A DNA stretch of 64,000 bases from an uncultured Candidatus Saccharibacteria bacterium (GTDB lineage Bacteria > Patescibacteriota > Minisyncoccia > Phycocordibacterales > JACOZG01): positions 6,306 through 70,305 of the forward strand of contig CAYNPK010000003.1 in NCBI GenBank assembly GCA_964399075.1, given 5' to 3'. Both the position numbers and the translations under genes were made by a program. Positions within the stretch are counted from its first letter, which is position 1. Each line of letters starts with the position of its first letter. A model generated the notes under the pieces. It was not told where the DNA came from. It searched no databases and worked only from the letters and a program-made list of their open reading frames with translations. Positions 4,602 to 57,238 of the stretch are shown here, piece by piece.

Positions 4602-4619
4602 TTCCACGCTCGGCCCGAA

Positions 4620-4656
4620 CCCACCAGGTCGCAAGATTATTGGTGGGTTTTTTTAT
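4620..4656. terminator. Bidirectional rho-independent terminator
   Basis: Hairpin cccacca-(14 nt)-tggtggg followed by tttttttatttt. Confidence 0.7.
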
Positions 4657-4671
4657 TTTAAAATATTTTGA

Positions 4672-5757
4672 TTATTTCTTCTCCCCTCGCGCCACGAGCA
4701 AGATCGTGGCAATGAGAGTGGTGATAGGCACGGCTAAAATAATCGAGGTACTACCAACAATAGTTCTGATTATTTCGGTCGCGAAAATCTCGCGATTGAG
4801 TAAGAGGAGTGAGGCTTCGGCATGATAAAAAAACAGAAGCAATGGCAGAGCCACACCGGCATAAGCTAGAGCCAAAGTGTTAACCATCCCACCGACATGT
4901 TCCTGACCAACTCGCAGAGCCCGACGGTAAACTTCCTTGCGTGACAGATGTGGCGCGGCGATATTTAATTCTTTAACTGTTGCCGCTTGAGTAATCGCCA
5001 CATCATCAAGAATCCCAAGCACGCCAATAATAATCGCGCCCAAGAGCAGACCGCGGAAATCTAGAGTGCCACCAGTGTGAATGTTGAGATAGACACTAGC
5101 CTCTTCCGAGAAACCACTTAACTTCGTTAAACTAACAGCCAAGTTGGCGAAGACAATGGTGATCAAGACTGTCACAATTGTTCCGAACAAGGCGGCGCTC
5201 GACTCCCAATTGAAACCGTGAGTGGTGTAAATAGCAAAAATCAGAATCGCAATCGCGAAGAGAGAACTCACCAACATAGGTGAAACACCAGCAATCAATT
5301 GGGGAAAGAGAAAATAAAAGAGAATTAAAAAACTACCAGTCAGCGCCACCAGAGAACGCAATCCTCGCCACCGACCAAAAAATAGAACTACCGCCACGAA
5401 AATTAAAGCGAAGAAGAGCAAAATCCCCCGCCGATCCGGCTCTCGGAAGTGATAGAGCTCATCACCATCGACAGTGATAACACGAGCGAGAAAAAATTTG
5501 TCACCAACCTTAAGTGGCGAGAAATCATTTTCTAAAATTATTGTTTCACTCGCTTGCGGACCATCAAGCAACTCGGCTCGCAATTCTTGAACTCTAGCTT
5601 CGACAGGGAGACCGGGCAATTGACGGGCCTCATCGGAAATAATTTCTACCACCTTAGCGCGCCAAATTTCCGGAGATTCCTCATAAACTTCTTGGGCCTG
5701 AACATTAGTCCAGGAAACAAAAATTGCGAGAATTAAAATAATATATTTGATAAGCAT
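4672..5757 (-). CDS. YibE/F-like family polytopic membrane protein
   Basis: 361 aa; signal or TM segment, then a soluble domain, then about 6 TM helices; composition typical of the YibE/F family. Confidence 0.7.
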   Translation of the reverse strand: MLIKYIILILAIFVSWTNVQAQEVYEESPEIWRAKVVEIISDEARQLPGLPVEARVQELRAELLDGPQASETIILENDFSPLKVGDKFFLARVITVDGDELYHFREPDRRGILLFFALIFVAVVLFFGRWRGLRSLVALTGSFLILFYFLFPQLIAGVSPMLVSSLFAIAILIFAIYTTHGFNWESSAALFGTIVTVLITIVFANLAVSLTKLSGFSEEASVYLNIHTGGTLDFRGLLLGAIIIGVLGILDDVAITQAATVKELNIAAPHLSRKEVYRRALRVGQEHVGGMVNTLALAYAGVALPLLLFFYHAEASLLLLNREIFATEIIRTIVGSTSIILAVPITTLIATILLVARGEKK

Positions 5758-32481: not shown

Positions 32482-32521
32482 ATTAGGGATTAGGGATTAG
32501 GGATTAGGGATTAGGGATTAG
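32482..32521. repeat. Heptanucleotide microsatellite (ATTAGGG) x5 plus a partial copy
   Basis: cattagggattagggattagggattagggattagggattag read directly from the sequence; located between the acidic ORF and the four-helix-bundle gene. Confidence 0.9.
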
Positions 32522-49875: not shown

Positions 49876-50133
49876 GTTCTTAACTATAATATCATATCTA
49901 GCACGACTTTCAGAAAAAGCTATCTTGACCAGACTTTTATTTTGTATTTATTTGACAAATTTTTGTTAATTAATTTTTGCCATTAAACAATCGAGAGTAT
50001 TTTTCATTTATATTATTTTTTACTCTTCCAAGTGGTTCCAAGCTATTGAACCATTGCGCCCACTTGACAAAATAAGTAGACTATGCCAAGCTATATAGTG
50101 TTCAAAGTGATAGAGAGGGATAGTAAGAAGGAC

Positions 50134-50162
50134 TTGACAAGAGAGGTCAAAAGGTATATACT
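50134..50162 (+). promoter_or_regulatory. Consensus sigma70-type promoter (TTGACA-17-TATACT) reading into the high-GC island
   Basis: gacTTGACAagagaggtcaaaaggtaTATACTg; about 200 nt upstream of the island's first ATG (50362). Confidence 0.5.
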
Positions 50163-50361
50163 GTATGGAGTTACTGAAGTTTGGCCAGGACTTTGACAAT
50201 CGAATAGGATGAAGAGGTAAAAATAGAGAAATCTATTGTTATTCCTCAACGTCTGAATAAGAGATAGCGTAAAAACCTTAACCTTGTTCAGATTTGAGGG
50301 ATCGCAATGTTTGCGGTTCTTGGTTCCCGCCAACCGATGGCGAAGTGGCAAGGAGAGCAAC

Positions 50362-50934
50362 ATGAAAAAGATTGTTCTCGCCGGGCCGCCTCGGTCTGGC
50401 AAGAGCTGTGTGCGCGAAGGGCTGAAGCAGGCCATTCGCGCGATTCCCGGCAACGCGGTGTATCCGTATGTGATCACCGCTTGCCCCGACGGCGAAGGTT
50501 CGTGGTTCCAGGAAACTGTGAACAACGACCCAGAGCTGGCGGCGGCGTGCAAGGCGGCCTACAAGGCCAAGTTCACGCCGGAGTTCGTGAAGCGGGTTGC
50601 GGACTCCGTCCGCAATTGCTCGCTCGAGCTGACTCTCGTGGACATTGGAGGTATCACCTCCGTTGAAAACGAGGAGATCTGCAGTTCGGCGACGCACATT
50701 GTCATTCTCGCGAGCGACATGAGCAATGTCGCCGAGTGGCAGGAGTTTGCTCGGAAGGTCGGGCTCACTGTGGTGGCCGAGATTCACTCGGATTACCACG
50801 GCACGGAAGATGGCGTCGAGGGCGTTGGTCCCGACGGTATCCTTCGCGGGTCGGTTCACCACCTCGAACGAGGTGAAGTAGTGGCCGACCGTCCGATGAT
50901 CAAAGCTCTCGCAGACCATTTGCTGGCGATTTAA
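50362..50934 (+). CDS. P-loop NTPase of unrecognised family (190 aa), first gene of the high-GC island
   Basis: RBS aaggaga 7 nt upstream; Walker A KIVLAGPPRSGKSC, Walker B-like LELTLVDIGG; GC3-rich codon usage. Confidence 0.6.
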   Translation: MKKIVLAGPPRSGKSCVREGLKQAIRAIPGNAVYPYVITACPDGEGSWFQETVNNDPELAAACKAAYKAKFTPEFVKRVADSVRNCSLELTLVDIGGITSVENEEICSSATHIVILASDMSNVAEWQEFARKVGLTVVAEIHSDYHGTEDGVEGVGPDGILRGSVHHLERGEVVADRPMIKALADHLLAI

Positions 50935-51079
50935 TTCGCCAGGGTTGTGAGTCAGCCAAAAACTCTCATGGGAAACTGGAGAAGCCCATCTAATTCTTCT
51001 CCTCTCTGTTGAGTTCTTGAGAAGGTCTTGAGAACTCATTGAGAGGTTTGGGACCACTTGAAAAAGAAAGGAGTGTCCC

Positions 51080-51385
51080 ATGTCCACGTACAACATCAGC
51101 CTGACCGATGGCGTGCTCAAGGTGGGGTTCGGGGCTCCGGCCCAGAACGATCAGATCGTGAAGGATGCGGAGACGCGCCTCGACGAGATGATCTCCACCG
51201 GCGAGCTCGCGGGCGGTGACGTGATCCGGGTCAACGGCCCGGCCTCGCTCCCGGTCGCGATGGTGATCGCCCACAAGGTGGCGCACCTGTACGGCGCGGT
51301 GGCGTGCTTCGACCCCAAGCTGTCGAAGTACGTCGTGGCGATCAGCCACGACCCCGCCTACGTCGTGGGCGACCTGATCGACTAA
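51080..51385 (+). CDS. Hypothetical 101-aa protein, candidate partner of the P-loop NTPase
   Basis: RBS aaaggag 7 nt upstream of the ATG; high-GC codon usage; sequence MSTYNISLTDGVLKVGFGAPAQNDQIV...GGDVIRVNGPASLPVAMVIAHKV; no family recognised. Confidence 0.55.
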   Translation: MSTYNISLTDGVLKVGFGAPAQNDQIVKDAETRLDEMISTGELAGGDVIRVNGPASLPVAMVIAHKVAHLYGAVACFDPKLSKYVVAISHDPAYVVGDLID

Positions 51386-51895
51386 GTCGATCAGAAAAAT
51401 TCAGCAGTTCTTGTTACCGTTCTCTGTGGCAAAAGAATGGTAAGTCGGCAACGGCAGTGTTGCAAACATGGAAGAACAGAGCCTAAAAATTTTGTTCTTC
51501 CCCTTATTCAATTCATCACGTGTTGTGGTGAGTTGATTGGGAAAACGATTGAAAAAAGAAAAAAGAAAGGAGGCCAGCTCGACAAAGAACGTCGGGACGA
51601 TGGATATTGCAAACCTCGTTCCGAAGGGTGACGGGAACGCCGAGCTTGATTCGGCGATTCTGGAGGCCCAAAGGGCTTGCGCCGCTTACCGCGCAACGCA
51701 GGCGCAGGTGCAAGACTGGCGCAATCAGCCGGTCTATCCGTATTAGAAAGGAGGTTAGAGTTTGCTGAAAGATTCTCATCAAAAATCTTTCCCTTTTTAA
51801 GTTCATGAGCGATGTAGTTCGTGGACTTATTGGGATTTCACGCCCACGGGAACGGCTAAGGCCAAATCCCACGGGCAAGAATGGAGGAAAGTATA

Positions 51896-52657
51896 ATGCA
51901 GAATATTGAATGGTCGGATCAGATCGGTTCCCGCGGTCGGGGTGCGTGGCTCCTGTTCGTTAAAGGTGATGAGATCATTCCGTTCAGCGGAATGGATATC
52001 CCTGGCGTGGTTGTGGTCCGAGGAACGGACTACACCAAGAACGGTAAGTGGTCGCACACCACCTACCGGCTTCAGGTCGCGGACAGCGTGCGGCACATCG
52101 CCGGGCGCAACGGCTGGGAAACTGGCCGGTTCGTGGAAGGCCTCGGCTCTGCCGTTGGCTGTGCCACGCCCGACACGTGGGCGGACACAGCCAGTGCGCT
52201 CGGGGTTTCGGTGCCGAGCACGATGGAGTTCCTGCGGGCGTGGCGGCCAGGGGCCGCGGAGAAGTTGGATGAGGTCGAAGAGTCGTTGGCGAAACTGGAG
52301 GAAGTTTCCGAGCAGGAAACTGACTCCGTGATCGTCACCGTCTCGTTCGGCTCGCCGACCAACCGCGCCATCCGCGAGGGATACTGGGAGTGGCCAAAGG
52401 GCATCCCGGGATACGCCGCGGAGATCCGACTGAAGGATTCCGACAAGGGCTGGAGCGAGGGCAACATCACGGTCGTCGGAATCTCCGGCACCGTTCTCTC
52501 GGTCAAGCACTCGGCTGGTATGCACGGCGGTTACTACGCCGTGTCGGTCGCAGTTCTTCCAGGAACGGAGACCGAGATCCCGCCCTTCGAGACCGCCCAG
52601 GAAGTCGCCGAACCGCGGTTCGGCACTTGCTTGGGCGACTTGCTCAAGCGAGGATGA
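51896..52657 (+). CDS. Hypothetical 253-aa protein within the island (the track ORF starts 15 nt earlier)
   Basis: ggagga RBS 7 nt upstream of the second ATG; high-GC codon usage; no family recognised; followed by a strong terminator. Confidence 0.5.
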   Translation: MQNIEWSDQIGSRGRGAWLLFVKGDEIIPFSGMDIPGVVVVRGTDYTKNGKWSHTTYRLQVADSVRHIAGRNGWETGRFVEGLGSAVGCATPDTWADTASALGVSVPSTMEFLRAWRPGAAEKLDEVEESLAKLEEVSEQETDSVIVTVSFGSPTNRAIREGYWEWPKGIPGYAAEIRLKDSDKGWSEGNITVVGISGTVLSVKHSAGMHGGYYAVSVAVLPGTETEIPPFETAQEVAEPRFGTCLGDLLKRG

Positions 52658-52677
52658 AGAAGATGAAGTAGTTCTTT

Positions 52678-52733
52678 AGGAGGAGGGCGAGAGAGAATCG
52701 AAAAACGATCTCTCGTTCTCCTCCTCCTTTTTG
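52678..52733 (+). terminator. Rho-independent terminator
   Basis: Long GC-rich hairpin aggaggagggcgagagagaatcg-aaaaa-cgatctctcgttctcctcctcc followed by ttttt. Confidence 0.65.
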
Positions 52734-52804
52734 AAATCATCAGCGCGTTGCTGGTGGTTTCATTGGGAGAAGTTGTGAGTCAAATCTTTTTTGGAGGAAA
52801 AATC

Positions 52805-53008
52805 ATGAAGAGTTCTTTGACAGTTCTGTGTCTGTTTCTGCTGGTCGTGGGATTGCTCCTGACCACTAGCACCGGATGCGACCTGGTGATCCAGGCCGGT
52901 GGCGGTGGGGGTGGGTACCCGGTCGTGTACGACTATGGGTACTACGAGCCGGCCGTGGTCTACGACTACAGTTGGTACGACTACGGCTACTACGACTACT
53001 GGTGGTGA
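52805..53008 (+). CDS. Small Tyr/Trp/Asp-rich lipoprotein (67 aa)
   Basis: ggagga RBS; signal peptide with lipobox LTTSTGC; mature part GGGGGGYPVVYDYGYYEPAVVYDYSWYDYGYYDYWW. Confidence 0.5.
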   Translation: MKSSLTVLCLFLLVVGLLLTTSTGCDLVIQAGGGGGGYPVVYDYGYYEPAVVYDYSWYDYGYYDYWW

Positions 53009-53052
53009 CGAGGGGACTCGAGGGGACTTTCGTTCCCAGAAAGGAAACTACG

Positions 53053-53223
53053 ATGAAAAAGATTTCTTTTCTGATCGTGATGGTGCTGGTGGCGATCACT
53101 ACTGGTTGCGATTGGGAGTTCCGACCTGGTGGCCGTGTGTACGAGTCGATCCCTGTCATTTACAATGATGGGAACTACAACTGGTACAATTACGGCTATG
53201 GTTGGTACGTCACGGAGTACTGA
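53053..53223 (+). CDS. Small Tyr/Asn/Trp-rich lipoprotein paralog (56 aa)
   Basis: Signal peptide with lipobox AITTGC; mature part rich in N/Y/W (NDGNYNWYNYGYGWYVTEY); preceded by the same hairpin-plus-RBS motif as the next gene. Confidence 0.45.
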   Translation: MKKISFLIVMVLVAITTGCDWEFRPGGRVYESIPVIYNDGNYNWYNYGYGWYVTEY

Positions 53224-53262
53224 CGTGATGAGGGGACTTTCGTCCCCAGAAAGGAGAATGAG

Positions 53263-53802
53263 ATGAAAACGCTCACTTCTTTGGTGATTGTGGCGATGAT
53301 TCTGGGAACGGCTTCGACGGCTTCGGCTGGTGAGAGAAGCCACCGCCATCGGCCGGTCTTCGTTCGCTCGGCACCGGTGGTGCGGGTAGTCCGCCCTCCC
53401 GTGGTGGTGCATCGGCGCCCGGTCTACAGACCGATGCCGGTGTACTACGCCCCTCCGCCGATGGTGCGGGTGGTCCGTCCGGTGCCGGTGGTTTACCACC
53501 ATCGGCCTACCACCTTAGAGGGAGTGGCTGGCATCGTTGGCGTTGCTCTTGGTGGTGCGGCGGACATTGTCGCCGTTAGCCGTCAGAGCTCGCCGACGAT
53601 GATCGCGCCCATGCCCCTGCCGGCACCCCCTCCGCCCTATCAGGTGGAGGCGCCACCTGCTGGGTTCGTTGAGACCGGTCGGCGCTACCACAAACATGGT
53701 GGTGACACTGGCCGTCTCGACTACATCAAGGGATGGCTCAATGGGAGGGAGGTCAAGGTCGAATACAACGACTTTGGCCAGATTGAAGAGATTGATGACT
53801 AG
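53263..53802 (+). CDS. Secreted Pro/Val/Arg-rich repeat protein (179 aa)
   Basis: Signal peptide MKTLTSLVIVAMILGTASTASA; PVVRVVRP-type repeats (RPVFVRSAPVVRVVRPPVVVHRRPVYRPMPVYY...MVRVVRPVPVVY); C-terminal globular part. Confidence 0.5.
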   Translation: MKTLTSLVIVAMILGTASTASAGERSHRHRPVFVRSAPVVRVVRPPVVVHRRPVYRPMPVYYAPPPMVRVVRPVPVVYHHRPTTLEGVAGIVGVALGGAADIVAVSRQSSPTMIAPMPLPAPPPPYQVEAPPAGFVETGRRYHKHGGDTGRLDYIKGWLNGREVKVEYNDFGQIEEIDD

Positions 53803-53826
53803 TGAGCCGGGAGGTCTCGCTGTCAC

Positions 53827-53867
53827 ACACGCGCCTACTGCTTTCGAGCGGTGGGCGTGTTTTTTTG
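53827..53867 (+). terminator. Rho-independent terminator closing the high-GC island
   Basis: Hairpin cacgcgcc-(loop)-ggtgggcgtg followed by ttttttt; low-GC tsaE begins 15 nt later. Confidence 0.6.
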
Positions 53868-53881
53868 CTAAAATAATTTAG

Positions 53882-54313
53882 ATGAAGACTTTAAGTCACA
53901 ATGAACAAGAAACTCTTGGAGTGGTTAAGACTCTTCTTGGCTCTCTGAAGCCGGATTCTTCTTCTGCTACAATCTTAGGCTTAATTGGTGATCTAGGATC
54001 AGGTAAAACCACTTTTACTCAACTTCTGGCTCAAGAATTGGGAGTGACCGAGTCGGTTACTAGTCCGACTTTTGTGTTGGAGAAAATTTATCCTCTAAGT
54101 AATCAGGCTTTTAATCGTCTTGTTCACATTGATGCTTATCGATTGGATAAATCGGAAGAATTATCGCAACTTGGTTGGGATCAATTGATTCGCGATAAGG
54201 GTAATTTAATTGTGGTTGAGTGGGCTGACCGGGTGGCCTCAATTCTTCCGTCTCGTCATCTTAAAATACATTTTCGCTTTATTGATTTAACCACGCGTGA
54301 AATCTCATGGTAA
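53882..54313 (+). CDS. tsaE: tRNA threonylcarbamoyladenosine biosynthesis protein TsaE (YjeE)
   Basis: 143 aa; P-loop GDLGSGKTTFTQ, SPTFVL motif; TsaE length. Confidence 0.8.
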   Translation: MKTLSHNEQETLGVVKTLLGSLKPDSSSATILGLIGDLGSGKTTFTQLLAQELGVTESVTSPTFVLEKIYPLSNQAFNRLVHIDAYRLDKSEELSQLGWDQLIRDKGNLIVVEWADRVASILPSRHLKIHFRFIDLTTREISW

Positions 54314-56670
54314 TTAAGCTTAAAAAATTAGTGCTACTCGACGCCCACGCTATCCTCCATCGCGCTTATCATGCCTTGCCGGACTTTACTTCCCCTCAGG
54401 GTGAACCAACTGGTGGTTTGTATGGTTTAGTCACCATGTTAATTAGAATTTTGGGTGAATTGCGACCGGATTATGTTATTGCTTGTTACGATTTGCCTGA
54501 CACCACTTTCCGTAAAGAACTCTACGATAATTACAAGGCCGGTCGTCAGAAAACTGATGATGATTTGGTGGCTCAATTAATTCGCTCCCGCGATATTTTT
54601 ACTGCTTTTAATATTCCAATTTATGATCAGCCGGGATTTGAGGCTGACGATATTATTGGCACTATTGTGGATAAGGTAAAGGGAGATAAGAAACTGCAAA
54701 CGATTATTGCTTCTGGTGACATGGATACTCTTCAGCTAGTTAGTGGCGACAAGGTGGTGGTCTACACTCTCAAGAAAGGTCTTAGTGAGACGATTACTTA
54801 TAACGAATTAGCCGTGCTCGAGCGGTTCGGTTTTGTTCCCCAACTCTTGCCGGACTACAAGGGTTTGCGTGGTGATCCTTCTGATAATATCATTGGCATT
54901 CCCGGGATTGGGGATAAAACAGCGACAGAATTAATTACTAAGTTTGGCTCGATTGAAGAGATTTATCAAACGCTAAAGAAAGATAAACAGAAGTTATTAC
55001 AAGCGGGGATCAAAGAACGAATTGTAAAATTATTAATAGAAAATGAGGAAGAGGCGATGTTTTCTAAAACTTTAGCAACTATCCGCCTCGATGCTCTGGA
55101 GGAATTTAATTTACCAACTGTGGAGTGGCGCCAGGGTCTTGATTTGGTGAAAATTGATGAACTTTTCGCCCAGCTCGGCTTCCGGACTTTAGGGGCGAGA
55201 GTTCGCGCTGGACTGGGAGAAAAGACTTCAATAGTGCTTGCTGGTGATCTTGATGACGCTGACAATACTGGTGATATTTTGCCAAGAGATCTAGCTATCG
55301 CCATCTGGTTGTTAAATTCTGACCTGACTAATCCAACTTGGGATGATCTGATGGCGGTAACTAAAACTAAAGAACCGCAACAGGCTAGAAATATTTTAGA
55401 AAAATTAATCAGAGAAAGAAATTTGGAGCAAGTTTATCGCGAAATTGAATTGCCTCTCATTCCGATTATTAAACAAGCTGAAGAACGTGGCATTTTGGTT
55501 GACGTGGCTCAACTTAAAGACTTATCGCAAAAGTATCACAAAAAATTAACTAATCTAGAGCGGGAAATCTATCAATTGGCGCAATTAGCGACAACGGAGA
55601 AATTTAATCTTAATTCACCCAAGCAACTTGCTGAAGTGCTGTTTGATAAAATGCAATTGTCGGCAAAGGGTTTGAAGAAGACCGCCGGTGGCGCGCGTTC
55701 AACGCGCGAATCAGAGCTAGTGAAACTGAAAGATGTTCACCCGATTATTGCGGAGATTTTGCAATATCGAGAATTACAGAAATTAGTTTCAACTTACCTT
55801 GATGCAATTCCTAAATTACTTGATCAAAACAATCGTCTGCATACCCATCTCCACCAAACTGGCACTAGCACTGGCCGGATGTCTTCGTCCGAGCCTAATT
55901 TGCAAAACATTCCCGCTGATGAGAATCATGGTGATAAAATTCGATCAGCCTTCCTGGCTTCTCCCGGACATCAGTGGCTTGCTTTTGATTATTCGCAAAT
56001 TGAGATGCGAGTGTTAGCTTTGCTCTCGGCTGATCCGGAATTGACCCAAATTTTCCAAACTGGCTCTGACGTTCATACTTCTGTAGCGGCTAGAGTTTTT
56101 CGGGTCAAAGAAGAAGAGGTGACTCGGGAGATGAGGCGTAGAGCAAAAGTGATTAATTTCGGCATCGTCTATGGTATGGGAGTTAGCGCGCTCCAGAAAA
56201 ATTTGAATTCCACTCGAGCGGAGGCGCAGGAATTTTATAATCAATATTTTGTTGCCTTTCCTAAAATTAACGCCTATTTTGATAAAGTTAAGTCAGAAGC
56301 CAAGCAGAAGGGTTATACCGAAACTCTTTTTGGCCGTCGGCGTTATTTCCCCGGACTCAAGGCTAGATTGCCTTATATTGTGGCGATGAACGAAAGAATG
56401 GCCGTCAACGCGCCAATCCAAGGCACGGCCGCCGATATCGTCAAAATTGCGATGCGGAAAGTTGATGAGGAAATAAGGAGGCAGGGGTGGAGTAATCAAG
56501 CCCACTTATTGCTCCAAGTTCATGATGAGTTAATTTTTGAAGTTGAAGATAAATTGGTTTCTGAAGTTAAGCCGGTTATTAAAAAAGTAATGGAAGAGAT
56601 TATTAATAATAAAATTATTCCCTTTACCGTCTCTGCTTCGCAGGGGAGGAGTTGGGGTGAGGCGGAGTAG
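54307..56670 (+). CDS. polA: DNA polymerase I (5'-3' exonuclease plus polymerase domains; apparently no full 3'-5' exonuclease domain)
   Basis: 787 aa; N-terminal FEN-like domain (LLDAHAILHRAYHAL), polymerase motifs A (DYSQIEMRVLA), B (RRRAKVINFGIVYG) and C (QVHDEL). Confidence 0.9.
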   Translation: MVIKLKKLVLLDAHAILHRAYHALPDFTSPQGEPTGGLYGLVTMLIRILGELRPDYVIACYDLPDTTFRKELYDNYKAGRQKTDDDLVAQLIRSRDIFTAFNIPIYDQPGFEADDIIGTIVDKVKGDKKLQTIIASGDMDTLQLVSGDKVVVYTLKKGLSETITYNELAVLERFGFVPQLLPDYKGLRGDPSDNIIGIPGIGDKTATELITKFGSIEEIYQTLKKDKQKLLQAGIKERIVKLLIENEEEAMFSKTLATIRLDALEEFNLPTVEWRQGLDLVKIDELFAQLGFRTLGARVRAGLGEKTSIVLAGDLDDADNTGDILPRDLAIAIWLLNSDLTNPTWDDLMAVTKTKEPQQARNILEKLIRERNLEQVYREIELPLIPIIKQAEERGILVDVAQLKDLSQKYHKKLTNLEREIYQLAQLATTEKFNLNSPKQLAEVLFDKMQLSAKGLKKTAGGARSTRESELVKLKDVHPIIAEILQYRELQKLVSTYLDAIPKLLDQNNRLHTHLHQTGTSTGRMSSSEPNLQNIPADENHGDKIRSAFLASPGHQWLAFDYSQIEMRVLALLSADPELTQIFQTGSDVHTSVAARVFRVKEEEVTREMRRRAKVINFGIVYGMGVSALQKNLNSTRAEAQEFYNQYFVAFPKINAYFDKVKSEAKQKGYTETLFGRRRYFPGLKARLPYIVAMNERMAVNAPIQGTAADIVKIAMRKVDEEIRRQGWSNQAHLLLQVHDELIFEVEDKLVSEVKPVIKKVMEEIINNKIIPFTVSASQGRSWGEAE

Positions 56671-56707: not shown

Positions 56708-57238
56708 ATGAATAAAATGTTAATTTTTCCTGAATATCGCCAATCAGATAAGTTTGATTGTGGAGCTTGTGCTTTGCAATCTGTTTTGGCTTATTATGGT
56801 ATTGATGTAAACGAGGCTGAAGTCATGAAGGTTGCCGGAACAAATCAAACCGGCACAACTCCGACTGGACTCGAGACGACAGTGGAACATTTCGGCCTAA
56901 GGCATGAGAGTGGTAAGCTGACCCAAGATAAATTAAAGAACTTTCTCGATCAGGATGTGCCAGTTATTTTAGCGATCCAAGCTTGGTCAGATCAGTCGAT
57001 AGGTGACTGGGCTAGAAATTGGATCAACGGTCATTATGTGGTGGCGATTGGTTATGATGAGAAGAAAATTTATTTTGAGGATCCGTCTTGTAATCGACGC
57101 ACTTTTTTAACTTTTGAGCAATTAGAAAGACATTGGCACGATGTTGATTCTGTTGGGAAAATATATGACCACTGGGGGATGGCTGTTTTTGGTGTGCCAA
57201 CCTATAACCCAGAGGAAGTGGTGCCATTGGGTTATTAG
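56708..57238 (+). CDS. Papain-like (peptidase C39-like) cysteine peptidase domain protein
   Basis: 176 aa; SDKFDCGACALQSVLAYYG (Cys nucleophile context) and later HYVVAIGYD (His). Confidence 0.6.
   Translation: MNKMLIFPEYRQSDKFDCGACALQSVLAYYGIDVNEAEVMKVAGTNQTGTTPTGLETTVEHFGLRHESGKLTQDKLKNFLDQDVPVILAIQAWSDQSIGDWARNWINGHYVVAIGYDEKKIYFEDPSCNRRTFLTFEQLERHWHDVDSVGKIYDHWGMAVFGVPTYNPEEVVPLGY

Follow-up and report, generated by a model that had tools for sequence, protein, structure and literature searches.

The three small genes at 52805-53802 of the window (the whole 64-kb stretch of DNA that was analysed) are a lineage-specific form of a two-gene Saccharibacteria (TM7) module conserved between pilB and tsaE, and the hairpin-plus-Shine-Dalgarno (SD) cassette repeated among them is a by-product of tandem duplication: a tiny gene was copied together with its downstream spacer, and the cassette belongs to the 3' flank of that unit. 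For the locus as a whole, we lean, at somewhat better than even confidence, towards a lineage-specific two-gene module in which the tiny-gene unit was duplicated, the stem-loop acts at the mRNA level and the two proteins associate with each other outside the membrane. The features of the locus are as follows.

50300..53830, + strand: GC-rich segment with foreign codon usage, holding genes 1-3 and four upstream genes (GC3, PADLOC).
50362-50934: AAA part of Csx3-AAA (PADLOC Csx3-AAA, 4e-58 and 7e-31 for the two parts).
51080-51385: Csx3 part of Csx3-AAA (same PADLOC match).
51600-51746: 48-aa open reading frame in the GC-rich segment.
51881-52657: 258-aa open reading frame of no assigned function in the GC-rich segment.
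52678..52730, + strand: strong terminator-like hairpin with a T-run (fold -36.7 kcal/mol, z -4.0), closing the upstream Csx3-AAA gene cluster and forming the 5' boundary of the three-gene unit.
52805..53008, + strand: gene 1, a tiny Tyr/Asp/Gly/Trp-rich peptide with a 67-aa precursor (open reading frame, lipobox pattern, composition, family HMM, period-15 repeat).
53020..53045, + strand: cassette copy 1, with hairpin 53022-53037, AG and SD AAAGGA at 53040-53045; gene 2 starts with ATG at 53053.
53053..53223, + strand: gene 2, 56 aa, a divergent paralogue of gene 1 (alignment, BLASTP, lipobox pattern, composition).
53230..53255, + strand: cassette copy 2, with hairpin 53232-53247, AG and SD AAAGGAG at 53250-53256; gene 3 starts with ATG at 53263.
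53263..53802, + strand: gene 3, a secreted protein of 179 aa.
53829..53870, + strand: intrinsic terminator with a 14-bp stem and T7 (-39.4 kcal/mol, z -5.3; terminator scan), closing the three-gene unit just 5' of tsaE.

The three genes, noticed earlier in a sequence-only reading, were recovered as open reading frames on the + strand (52805-53008, 53053-53223 and 53263-53802), and they are real genes, conserved and syntenic. It is scarcely credible that the small frames are spurious or that the GC-rich segment is an assembly chimera. The composition of the 3.5-kb segment is indeed sharply unlike that of its flanks (GC3 of its genes 0.65-0.94 versus 0.31-0.42), and one gene caller replaced the two tiny genes by a single 89-aa ORF that runs across both in another frame (L001). 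Nevertheless, two sequencing runs assembled identical sequence, with L001 crossing both junctions and L002 the island-tsaE junction, which contradicts a chimera and led us to reject it. Against spurious frames, each of the three genes has both an SD and a signal peptide, and homologues of genes 1 and 3 occupy the same chromosomal position in relatives. The NCBI protein collection for this genome lists only the gene 3 product among the three. Scanning for sigma-70 promoters gave no candidate 5' of gene 1, and the lineage-typical promoter conserved 5' of the tiny gene in relatives is absent at this locus.

At least 7 related lineages carry, between pilB and tsaE, the pair formed by a tiny Tyr-rich peptide and a PV/R-rich protein with a C-terminal beta domain. 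The order pilB (- strand), tiny Tyr-rich peptide, gene 3 homologue, tsaE and polA was observed in L005 (a Saccharibacteria MAG), L024-27 and L032, and the short contigs L004, L029 and L030 carry the tiny gene, the gene 3 homologue and tsaE. PolA is 62% identical to that of the L005 MAG. The locus L031 has no tiny gene, and its gene 3 homologue has a Gly/Tyr-rich N-terminal region of its own. Scans of genes 1-3 against Pfam, NCBIfam, PADLOC and PHROGs returned no meaningful family, and searches of the Saccharibacteria literature found no mention of the tiny-peptide or gene 3 proteins. As judged from their sequences, these are two uncharacterised protein families, neither of which has a Pfam or NCBIfam model.

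The gene 1 product (...LLLTTSTGC|DLV...YDYGYYDYWW, 67 aa) has a signal peptide with a lipobox-type Cys25, followed by a mature peptide of 43 aa with 28% Tyr and a net charge of about -6; its C-terminus is built of 15-nt repeats (YDYxW/Y; period-15 repeat at 52961-53011). The gene 2 product (...VAITTGC|DWE...NYNWYNYGYGWYVTEY, 56 aa) has a lipobox-type Cys19 and a mature peptide of 38 aa with 32% aromatic residues and a net charge of about -3. When the 993 window ORFs were searched with an HMM of the tiny peptides built only from relatives (n=7), gene 1 was detected with E=5.9e-10; gene 2 scored weakly (E=0.29) and is demonstrably a paralogue of gene 1. The family is characterized by a signal peptide, an invariant Cys-[DE], a ...P-V-(V)-Y... 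motif, a Y/D/G/W-rich C-terminus and a position 5' of the GFVETGRRYH-domain gene between pilB and tsaE; gene 1 belongs to it by the HMM match and by synteny. Mature peptides of the family are 38-52 aa long with 20-36% aromatic residues, mostly Tyr, and are acidic in 9/9 sequences (net -3 to -9). AF2 predicted no fold for the mature tiny peptide.

The claim that the two adjacent mini-genes encode lipobox signal peptides was borne out by a PROSITE PS51257-type pattern ({DERK}(6)-[LIVMFWSTAG](2)-[LIVMFYSTAGCQ]-[AGS]-C), which matched both gene 1 (VGLLLTTSTGC, Cys25) and gene 2 (VMVLVAITTGC, Cys19). The lipobox is not conserved across orthologues: L004, L005, L024, L030 and L023 fail, and the pattern is matched by L029 and L032 alone, with an earlier Cys (LVAC). 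In most relatives the residue just before the invariant Cys is Asp (TG[ST]DC). No Lgt or LspA signature motifs were found within the 64-kb window. The tiny peptide of this genome is probably lipid-anchored.

Gene 3 had been described as a signal peptide followed by PV/R repeats. Both parts are present, but that description missed a Gly/Ala/Val stretch and a conserved C-terminal domain. The signal peptide (residues 1-22, ...TASTASA|G) is followed by PVVRVVRP and PMVRVVRP within a basic Pro/Val/Arg/His/Tyr-rich region (residues about 23-94) that is predicted to be disordered, with a pI of about 12. Then come a hydrophobic Gly/Ala/Val stretch (residues ~95-116) that is not seen in relatives, a Pro-rich linker, and the conserved C-terminal domain of ~48 aa (about 131-179; GFVETGRRYHKHG...LDYIKG...VKVEYNDFG). 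AF2 modelled residues 131-179 as a confident four-strand beta sheet (pLDDT 89-98) and gave the N-terminal region a pLDDT of 48-66. With the window gene 3 protein as query, P0002 was matched at E=2.4e-13 and P0003 at E=1.5e-4. A profile search of the C-terminal domain retrieved just 29 cluster representatives among 1.84 billion proteins. Gene 3 thus falls within a GFVETGRRYHxHG family of secreted proteins that combine a basic low-complexity region with a ~48-aa C-terminal domain; the N-terminal regions of the gene 3 homologues are basic in 8/8 (+5 to +10).

Two known groups of proteins resemble parts of gene 3. The PXPV-repeat or Pro/Val/Tyr-rich small secreted proteins (PF12778) are alike in composition: they too open with a signal peptide and continue into a basic low-complexity region of P-x-P-V/Y type, and soil PXPV-like proteins carry RVVIVRPPVFVPRPVFVYRPAPVYY plus a glycine zipper, comparable to the Gly/Ala/Val stretch of gene 3; tblastn gave 38-57% identity between gene 3 and these soil proteins over residues 1-78. 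Unlike gene 3, PXPV-type proteins lack the GFVETGRRYHxHG C-terminal domain and a tiny-gene partner. PF12778 was matched weakly by 3/29 gene 3 family members (best E=4.7e-4), and gene 3 itself had no match at E<=0.1, below any Pfam threshold. When metagenomes were scanned with an alignment of full-length gene 3, the matches were all compositional (soil PV-rich/glycine-zipper proteins) and did not include the C-terminal domain, and we did not accept these as homologues. The second resemblance is to Rhs/YD-repeat beta-hairpins: the C-terminal motif V-K-I-x-Y-D-D-x-G-R-[VI] of the family looks like one YD repeat, the best PDB profile match of the domain was an Rhs protein (E=2.2), and Foldseek listed an Rhs effector (E>=1.5), neither match being significant. 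Pfam RHS_repeat did not match the C-terminal domain, which comprises about two hairpins only, compared with an Rhs shell. YD/Rhs membership was therefore not adopted, as PDB profile, Foldseek and Pfam results were all non-significant, and it is kept as a lead only.

The sequence-only reading had also noted a near-identical element 5' of genes 2 and 3, and this was confirmed as a 26-nt hairpin-plus-SD cassette, GAGGGGACTTTCGTYCCCAGAAAGGA, which occurs exactly twice in 64 kb (53020-53045 and 53230-53255) with 0 matches in 100 shuffles. The element is indeed shared, but the flank that follows a duplicated gene is a better description of it than an upstream cassette. Unit 1 (gene 1 plus spacer) aligned end to end with unit 2 (gene 2 plus spacer). 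Measured against codon shuffles, the alignment of the gene 1 and gene 2 coding sequences scored z=7; 72% of its aligned columns were identical, compared with 81% identity in the spacers and 25/26 in the core cassette. At the protein level the identity was 37% (BLASTP E=1e-8); this and the DNA alignment bear out the earlier proposal that the tiny peptides are paralogous. Each relative has only one tiny gene, and the second is found in none of them. The cassette itself was detected only in this genome's own contigs when viral contigs and all relative loci examined were searched. A tandem duplication in this genome of the tiny gene with its 3' spacer, that is, the stem-loop and the SD of the next gene, accounts for the arrangement: because the unit was duplicated in tandem, the same hairpin-SD element lies 5' of genes 2 and 3 and 3' of genes 1 and 2. 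The copies could be nearly identical not through selection but because the duplication was recent or gene conversion took place. Just 5' of cassette copy 1 lies a 10-nt direct duplication (GAGGGGACTC|GAGGGGACTT, 53010-53019).

We then consider whether the hairpin is a structured ribosome-binding site (an RNA thermometer, attenuator or riboswitch-like element) controlling translation initiation of genes 2 and 3, as had been proposed; this is very unlikely. Copy 2 forms a 6-bp stem GGGGAC/GUCCCC with loop UUUC, and copy 1 a stem GGGGAC/GUUCCC with one G.U pair and the same loop. The stem had been taken as fused to the RBS, and it does end just 2 nt upstream of the SD, within the 30S-subunit contact region, but it never includes the SD. 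The SDs (starting at 53040 and 53250) were unpaired in the local MFE and centroid folds of both copies, and SD and AUG lay outside the conserved GC stem in all folds. Folding of the 5' UTRs, a check proposed with the original claim, thus found the hairpin but no occlusion of the SD by it. The gene 2 SD is 97% paired in its 90-nt context (top 1.5% of window genes), which would suit a structured RBS; its partner, however, is its own coding sequence, UUUCUUUUCU, and not the cassette hairpin. This pairing is not repeated for gene 3, whose SD pairing probability is an ordinary 0.63 (about the 36th percentile of window genes). RNA thermometers (ROSE, fourU) and SD-sequestering leaders likewise have a small hairpin near the SD in the 5' region, but their defining trait, an SD or AUG paired inside a labile stem, is missing from the cassette. 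Scanned with Rfam 15 at E<=10, the interval 50000-54000 yielded nothing beyond chance matches on terminator hairpins, with none on the cassette, thermometer families included. Moreover, stems in relatives lie up to about 30 nt from the SD. The cassette stems are not intrinsic terminators either, and this candidate was rejected for want of a U-tract: both stems are followed by AGAAAGGA, and the terminator scan lists only 53829-53860 in the three-gene unit.

In relatives, the spacer between the tiny gene and gene 3 carries stem-loops of unrelated sequence that are stronger than those of the cassette (L004, z -4.3; L024, z -3.3; L032, z -4.3; L028, z -2.3). Conservation, also proposed as a check, gave a divided result: the peptide family is conserved, and no relative carries the cassette sequence. 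One stem is common to L004 and L024, which differ in it by a compensatory change (A-U to U-A) and by G-C to G.U. In L032 the stem begins directly after the tiny-gene stop and leaves 28 nt to the SD, and in L028 about 30 nt separate the stem from the SD, so the structure tracks the 3' end of the tiny gene and not the RBS. None of these spacer stems is followed by a U-tract, whereas the module's terminators before tsaE all have T-runs. L005, L029 and L030 have no stem-loop in this spacer, which shows that the stem-loop is not essential to the module.

These comparisons also bear on a simpler explanation, in which the cassette has no function of its own beyond the SD and is the passenger spacer of a fairly recent tandem duplication, or was homogenised by gene conversion. 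With 6 bp and about -10 kcal/mol the cassette stems are short and weak, and by themselves they do not stand out against shuffles (z -1.2 and -1.7), the cassette is missing from all relatives, three relatives lack any stem, and the GC-rich island folds readily in general, holding 5/7 of the structured pre-SD regions in the window. However, the core is 25/26 identical next to coding sequence at about 72%, with a chance of roughly 0.002 if sites are equivalent and with the compared segment chosen post hoc, and four other lineages independently keep a stem-loop in that spacer, one pair with a compensatory change. We regard a functionless spacer as possible but doubtful. Most likely, given its position and structure, the stem-loop works between cistrons as an element of mRNA stability or attenuation; protection of the 5' end of the downstream cistron once the mRNA has been processed is a further possibility. 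Acting on the mRNA, it would form a protective or attenuating structure at the 3' ends of the tiny-gene segments, through which the tiny peptides could be made in excess over gene 3. Precedents for 3' protective intergenic structures are malE-malF and puf, and consecutive hairpins after menB and menC accompany a stepwise mRNA decrease (PMC5927463). As in malE-malF, Rhodobacter puf and menBCE (PMC5927463), a GC stem-loop without a U-tract follows the upstream stop and precedes a free SD, and as in menBCE, consecutive hairpins follow two successive genes; in some relatives of this locus, position and structure recur, but not sequence. In contrast to those systems, the stems here are short (6 bp) and missing in some relatives.

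The tiny peptides are always acidic and the disordered region of the partner is always basic (9 and 8 sequences, respectively), and this charge complementarity suggests a surface complex held by charge and cation-pi contacts. Outside the membrane, the acidic peptide with its many Tyr would bind the basic region rich in Arg, Pro, Val and Tyr by charge and by cation-pi/aromatic contacts. The gene 3 protein would help to build a surface layer or adhesive, for which the tiny lipopeptide would serve as anchor or template. We infer lipidation, physical interaction and a surface function of the pair, the interaction from composition only; a surface or adhesive role of the tiny peptides is plausible. 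Extracellular layers that are cross-linked or self-associating are known from Bacillus spore-coat CotC/CotU and from plant Pro-rich wall proteins and extensins. The tiny peptides resemble CotC/CotU in being very small, with about 30% Tyr together with Asp, and the partner resembles the plant proteins in its Pro/Val/Tyr repeats. CotC/CotU are Lys-rich and have no signal peptides, there is no known sequence homology to any of these proteins, and no cross-linking enzyme is linked at this locus.

Could the tiny peptides instead be exported bioactive agents (bacteriocin-, RiPP- or antimicrobial-like Gly/Tyr-rich) aimed at host or competitors, with gene 3 as carrier or immunity partner? They are small, their post-Cys motif [DE]-[ILW]-x-[IF]-x-x-G-G loosely recalls double-glycine leaders, three Cys in most relatives could form disulfides, and a stand-alone C39-like peptidase gene lies 3 kb downstream (56708-57238). 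Yet the N-terminus is a classical hydrophobic Sec/lipoprotein signal and not a double-glycine leader, tsaE and polA stand between the module and the C39-like gene, and a maturase, ABC exporter or immunity gene is linked in 0 of about 9 loci, all of which makes a bioactive role highly improbable. A RiPP precursor was rejected outright, as no locus has a linked maturase.

Overall, the initial interpretation stood for the paralogues and the conserved peptide family, and fell for the structured RBS or thermometer and the upstream-cassette description. This removes a false lead, since the repeated hairpin-RBS reflects tandem gene duplication plus an ordinary intercistronic stem-loop and not a new riboregulator. 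In addition, the foreign codon usage and the split Csx3-AAA gene pair document that genes have flowed into the small genome of an epibiont. Patescibacteria, Saccharibacteria among them, spend their lives attached to host bacteria, and to our knowledge few surface components for this attachment are known beyond type IV pili. A more specific proposal, which we hold to be unlikely, is that the pair forms a Saccharibacteria-specific two-component surface material, a coacervate- or cement-like adhesive driven by charge and cation-pi contacts and genetically linked to the type IV pilus ATPase gene, that would aid host attachment of ultrasmall epibionts, with stem-loops tuning the peptide-to-protein ratio. 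The co-conservation of both families next to pilB, together with their complementary chemistry, makes them concrete candidates for envelope or attachment factors.

We read window 52500-54200 and listed its ORFs. The results bore out three consecutive small genes, two tiny and one Pro/Val/Arg-rich, as the sequence-only reading had proposed; they are given below with the neighbouring features.

Features of the three-gene locus and the segment upstream.
50362-50934, AAA part of a split Csx3-AAA pair (PADLOC 4e-58)
51080-51385, Csx3/Crn3-like part of the same pair (PADLOC 7e-31; Pfam Cas_csx3)
52678-52730, strong terminator-like hairpin between the Csx3-AAA cluster and genes 1-3
52805-53008, plus strand, gene 1, 67 aa, MKSSLTVLCLFLLVVGLLLTTSTGC-DLVIQAGGGGGGYPVVYDYGYYEPAVVYDYSWYDYGYYDYWW (sequence reading and ORF listing)
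53053-53223, plus strand, gene 2, 56 aa, MKKISFLIVMVLVAITTGC-DWEFRPGGRVYESIPVIYNDGNYNWYNYGYGWYVTEY (sequence reading and ORF listing)
53263-53802, plus strand, gene 3, 179 aa, signal peptide ...TASTASA/G, followed by Pro/Val/Arg-rich sequence that includes PVVRVVRP and PMVRVVRP (ORF listing)
53829-53870, canonical terminator ending the three-gene unit ahead of tsaE

As had been claimed, genes 1 and 2 are clearly paralogous by alignment: BLASTP gave 37% identity at E=1e-8, and their DNA alignment scored z=7 relative to codon shuffles. In the protein collection, Logan assemblies were the only source of the tiny products, and the gene 3 product had an NCBI source too. In place of genes 1 and 2, one gene caller had produced an out-of-frame 89-aa ORF overlapping parts of both (52899-53168, corresponding to 9637-9906 of L001, a 33-kb Logan contig of the same genome). 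Annotation can easily overlook or mis-call these two genes.

A search with gene 3 returned two distant relatives only, which shared the C-terminal motif GFVETGRRYH[KR]HG...G.LD[YW]V.G. When 1.84 billion cluster representatives were searched with a profile of this ~55-residue C-terminal region, just 29 proteins passed E<=1e-3, and 25 of these also passed E<=1e-10. Their common architecture ran from a signal peptide through a basic Arg/Tyr/Pro/Val/Gly low-complexity region to the C-terminal domain; four entries departed from it, three truncated at the N-terminus and one an FMN_bind-like repeat protein of 1128 aa. On Saccharibacteria-type contigs the gene 3 homologue was flanked by pilB, on the opposite strand, and by tsaE-polA, and in nearly all cases a gene 1-like ORF of 63-76 aa came before it (L004, L005, L024-27, L029, L030 and L032). 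The L028 contig was cut 69 nt upstream of its homologue; L031 lacked the tiny gene, and its homologue P0009 had its own Gly/Tyr-rich N-terminal region; in L023 the tiny gene stood beside a VanZ-like gene instead. Outside the clade (L003, L033) the domain protein was monocistronic, with no tiny partner. The window's organism is a Saccharibacterium. The sole match among GTDB species representatives was a Candidatus Saccharibacteria MAG (L005), with the gene order of the window and a PolA 62% identical to the window's. An HMM built from seven relatives alone matched gene 1 among 993 stop-to-stop window ORFs (E=5.9e-10); gene 2 ranked second best (E=0.29, not significant alone). With high confidence, these comparisons indicate that the tiny gene and gene 3 are real genes forming a conserved module.

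In the tiny peptides a hydrophobic signal sequence led to an invariant Cys, with Asp or Glu as the next residue and [ILW]-x-[IF] after it; the shared features further along were a turn rich in Gly, a core reading ...P-V-(V)-Y... and a Tyr/Asp/Gly/Trp-rich tail often ending in WW. Lipoboxes had been claimed for both window copies, and genes 1 and 2 did satisfy the PROSITE rule, but in most relatives the residue before the invariant Cys (position -1) was Asp, and a canonical lipobox occurred only in L029 and L032, at an earlier Cys. Lipidation is plausible in the window's genome rather than a demonstrated family trait. Most orthologous peptides (L005, L024, L029, L030, L032, L004) had three Cys, one in DC[DE] and two near the C-terminus; the window's paralogues had the N-terminal Cys only, which suggests that a disulfide was lost in this lineage. 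A stand-alone 176-aa Peptidase_C39-like gene was found directly downstream of polA (56708-57238), with no ABC transporter domain adjacent. No link between it and the tiny peptides could be established, and we consider it highly improbable that these are exported bioactive peptides.

The three genes lie in a 3.5-kb segment (~50300-53830) of GC 55-69%, in a window of ~42%. GC3 was 0.65-0.94 in the seven genes of this island and 0.31-0.42 in the flanking pilB, ruvB, PBP, tsaE, polA and C39-like genes; Tyr codons were 7 TAT to 38 TAC inside and 64 TAT to 26 TAC outside. Spacers within the island had ~43-46% GC, and relatives carried the module at the equivalent place without the composition contrast. 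By composition, the island appears to result from horizontal acquisition or from replacement at the pilB-tsaE locus. The chance that the small ORFs are spurious, or the GC-rich segment an assembly chimera, is very small. A Logan contig from run SRR11845629 was 100% identical across 43263-63802, and a contig from a second run, SRR11845628, spanned 51577-54326, through the junction into tsaE. These contigs ruled out an assembly artefact for the island. Upstream of genes 1-3 the island held four genes, among them the split Csx3-AAA pair (two separate genes, AAA first, Csx3 second), which was followed by a 48-aa ORF and a 258-aa protein, the latter with no family or PDB match. Across the 64 kb of the window, Tandem Repeats Finder detected no repeat array; its output included ATTAGGG x 5.7, a perfect tandem repeat of 7 nt at 32482-32521 that is unrelated to the three-gene locus.

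Relatives L004 (~345-375), L024 (~5590-5625), L032 (~4615-4650), L030 and L005 conserved a promoter-like block 5' of the tiny gene, GGGGTATTGACAA-N16/17-(TATGC)TAAGCT or TATAAT, and a 5'-UTR motif, G(G)TGTTCGAAAT, was common to L004, L024 and L032. Comparison with these five loci showed the block to be absent from window 52731-52804, and the gene 1 leader directly adjoins the terminator that ends the inserted Csx3 cluster; TTGACA-N17-CAAGCT, resembling the block, occurred at ~50064-50092. A 13-bp leader hairpin at 52732-52762 (UGAAAUCAUCAGC/GCUGGUGGUUUCA, with G.U pairs), ~30 nt 5' of the gene 1 SD, overlapped the T-run of the preceding terminator. All three genes thus have an upstream stem-loop.

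The repetition of a hairpin-RBS element before genes 2 and 3 was confirmed: the 26-nt cassette GAGGGGACTTTCGTYCCCAGAAAGGA occurred exactly twice in the 64-kb window (53020-53045 and 53230-53255), with 0 matches in 100 shuffles. Its stem was 6 bp (GGGGAC/GUCCCC, with one G.U pair in copy 1) and its loop UUUC; the SD (AAAGGA or AAAGGAG) started 2 nt past the stem, and ATG followed 7 or 6 nt past the SD. The hairpin had been described as fused to the RBS; its stem in fact sits next to the SD and does not cover it. Immediately 5' of copy 1 stood a direct duplication of 10 nt (GAGGGGACTC). Taken together with the spacers that follow them, genes 1 and 2 aligned over the whole stretch between one start (ATGAA) and the next (ATGAAAA), so the cassette flanks genes 1 and 2 on their 3' side as much as it flanks genes 2 and 3 on their 5' side. 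Since all relatives had one tiny gene followed by one spacer, we infer with high confidence a tandem duplication of tiny gene plus spacer specific to the window's lineage; this explains why gene 1 has no upstream cassette while the non-homologous genes 2 and 3 share one. Between the duplicated units, identity was ~72% in aligned CDS columns (43 gap columns), 81% in the spacer and 25/26 in the 26-nt core, a better preservation of spacer and core that, post hoc, points mildly to constraint or gene conversion. Searched beyond the window, in relatives, viral contigs and Rfam, the cassette sequence was not found.

The element had been taken for a structured RBS such as an RNA thermometer. In local folds of both spacers the GC stem formed and SD and AUG were single-stranded, so that the hairpin occluded the RBS in neither copy. 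The gene 2 SD did pair strongly in 71-90-nt contexts (probability 0.97, which ranks it in the top 1.5% of the window's 67 crudely defined gene starts), but its partner was its own coding sequence, UUUCUUUUCU, not the cassette stem, and SD pairing was ordinary for gene 3 (0.63) and gene 1 (0.53). The local folds and the ordinary gene 3 pairing indicate that the RBS is not sequestered by the conserved element. Such sequestration is what defines an RNA thermometer, and this reading is very unlikely. In four relatives the corresponding spacer held a stem-loop stronger than the window's and different in sequence.

Stem-loops in the corresponding spacer of relatives.
L004, 13 bp, z -4.3
L024, z -3.3
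L032, 12 bp, z -4.3
L028, 10 bp, z -2.3

The stem common to L004 and L024 showed one compensatory pair (A-U to U-A) and one G-C to G.U change. The L032 stem began directly after the tiny gene stop and ended 28 nt 5' of the SD, and that of L028 ended ~30 nt 5' of the SD; the structure therefore tracks the tiny gene end, not the RBS. No U-tract followed these spacer stems, whereas the terminators before tsaE in those loci all had one; L005, L029 and L030 had short spacers and no stem. A functionless passenger spacer is less likely but keeps a substantial probability; the stem-loops in these four relatives and, mildly and post hoc, the core identity of 25/26 against ~72% in the CDS speak against it. 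Intercistronic protective or attenuating structures set mRNA stoichiometry in operons, as in malE-malF, puf and the consecutive menB/menC hairpins (PMC5927463). Like these, the stems of the window and its relatives come right after the upstream cistron, lack a U-tract and precede a free SD. We therefore prefer to read the cassette stem as a putative intercistronic structure of this kind; by this analogy the RNA element is not new in kind and matches the intercistronic stem-loop class.

Mature tiny peptides had a pI of about 4.05-4.2, a net charge of -3 to -9, 13-33% Tyr and 20-36% aromatic residues, and the partners' low-complexity region a pI of 9.4-11.6, a net charge of +5 to +10 and 17-24% Pro; the charges were opposite in every lineage examined. 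For the mature peptide of gene 1, AF2 predicted no fold, at a pLDDT of about 40, and with a 29-sequence alignment it gave gene 3 low-confidence, non-regular structure at residues ~23-125 and a confident four-strand beta-meander at 131-179 (pLDDT 89-98). Against PDB, the C-terminal domain had no Foldseek match below E=1.5 and no profile match (best, an Rhs YD-repeat protein, E=2.2). Pfam and NCBIfam returned nothing for genes 1-3 or the family, save weak PXPV matches in 3/29 relatives, and both proteins are outside every curated family. The description of gene 3 as a secreted PV/R-repeat protein held for its repeats and signal peptide, and is to be extended by the conserved C-terminal domain and a hydrophobic Gly/Ala/Val stretch. 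The latter (LEGVAGIVGVALGGAADIVAVS, 53545-53610, residues ~95-116) was an insertion relative to relatives, present in the window's genome only; it recalls the glycine-zipper tails found in soil PV-rich proteins and could be a membrane-associating segment. A metagenome scan had returned soil proteins with similar RVVIVRPPVFVPRP...APAPVYY stretches and glycine zippers, a likeness to gene 3 that we regard as compositional. PXPV-type low-complexity secreted proteins likewise resemble the window's pair in composition only, and Tyr-rich structural proteins such as CotC/CotU or plant Pro-rich wall proteins may do so too.

Our overall account, which we hold to be somewhat more probable than not, with high confidence in duplication and conservation and low confidence in function, is that the tiny peptide and its gene 3-type partner would be a conserved pair of exported proteins. 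The tiny (lipo)peptide, acidic and rich in Tyr, would be made in excess and would associate at the cell surface with the partner's basic Pro/Val/Arg/Tyr region through charge and aromatic/cation-pi contacts, and the partner's small beta domain would serve specific binding or oligomerisation. In the window's genome the peptide gene is doubled, each copy keeping its 3' stem-loop. A two-component adhesive or surface material dedicated to epibiont attachment is a doubtful extension of this account. What is new is a charge-complementary pair co-conserved beside pilB in an epibiotic lineage, together with the rare C-terminal domain of the gene 3 family.
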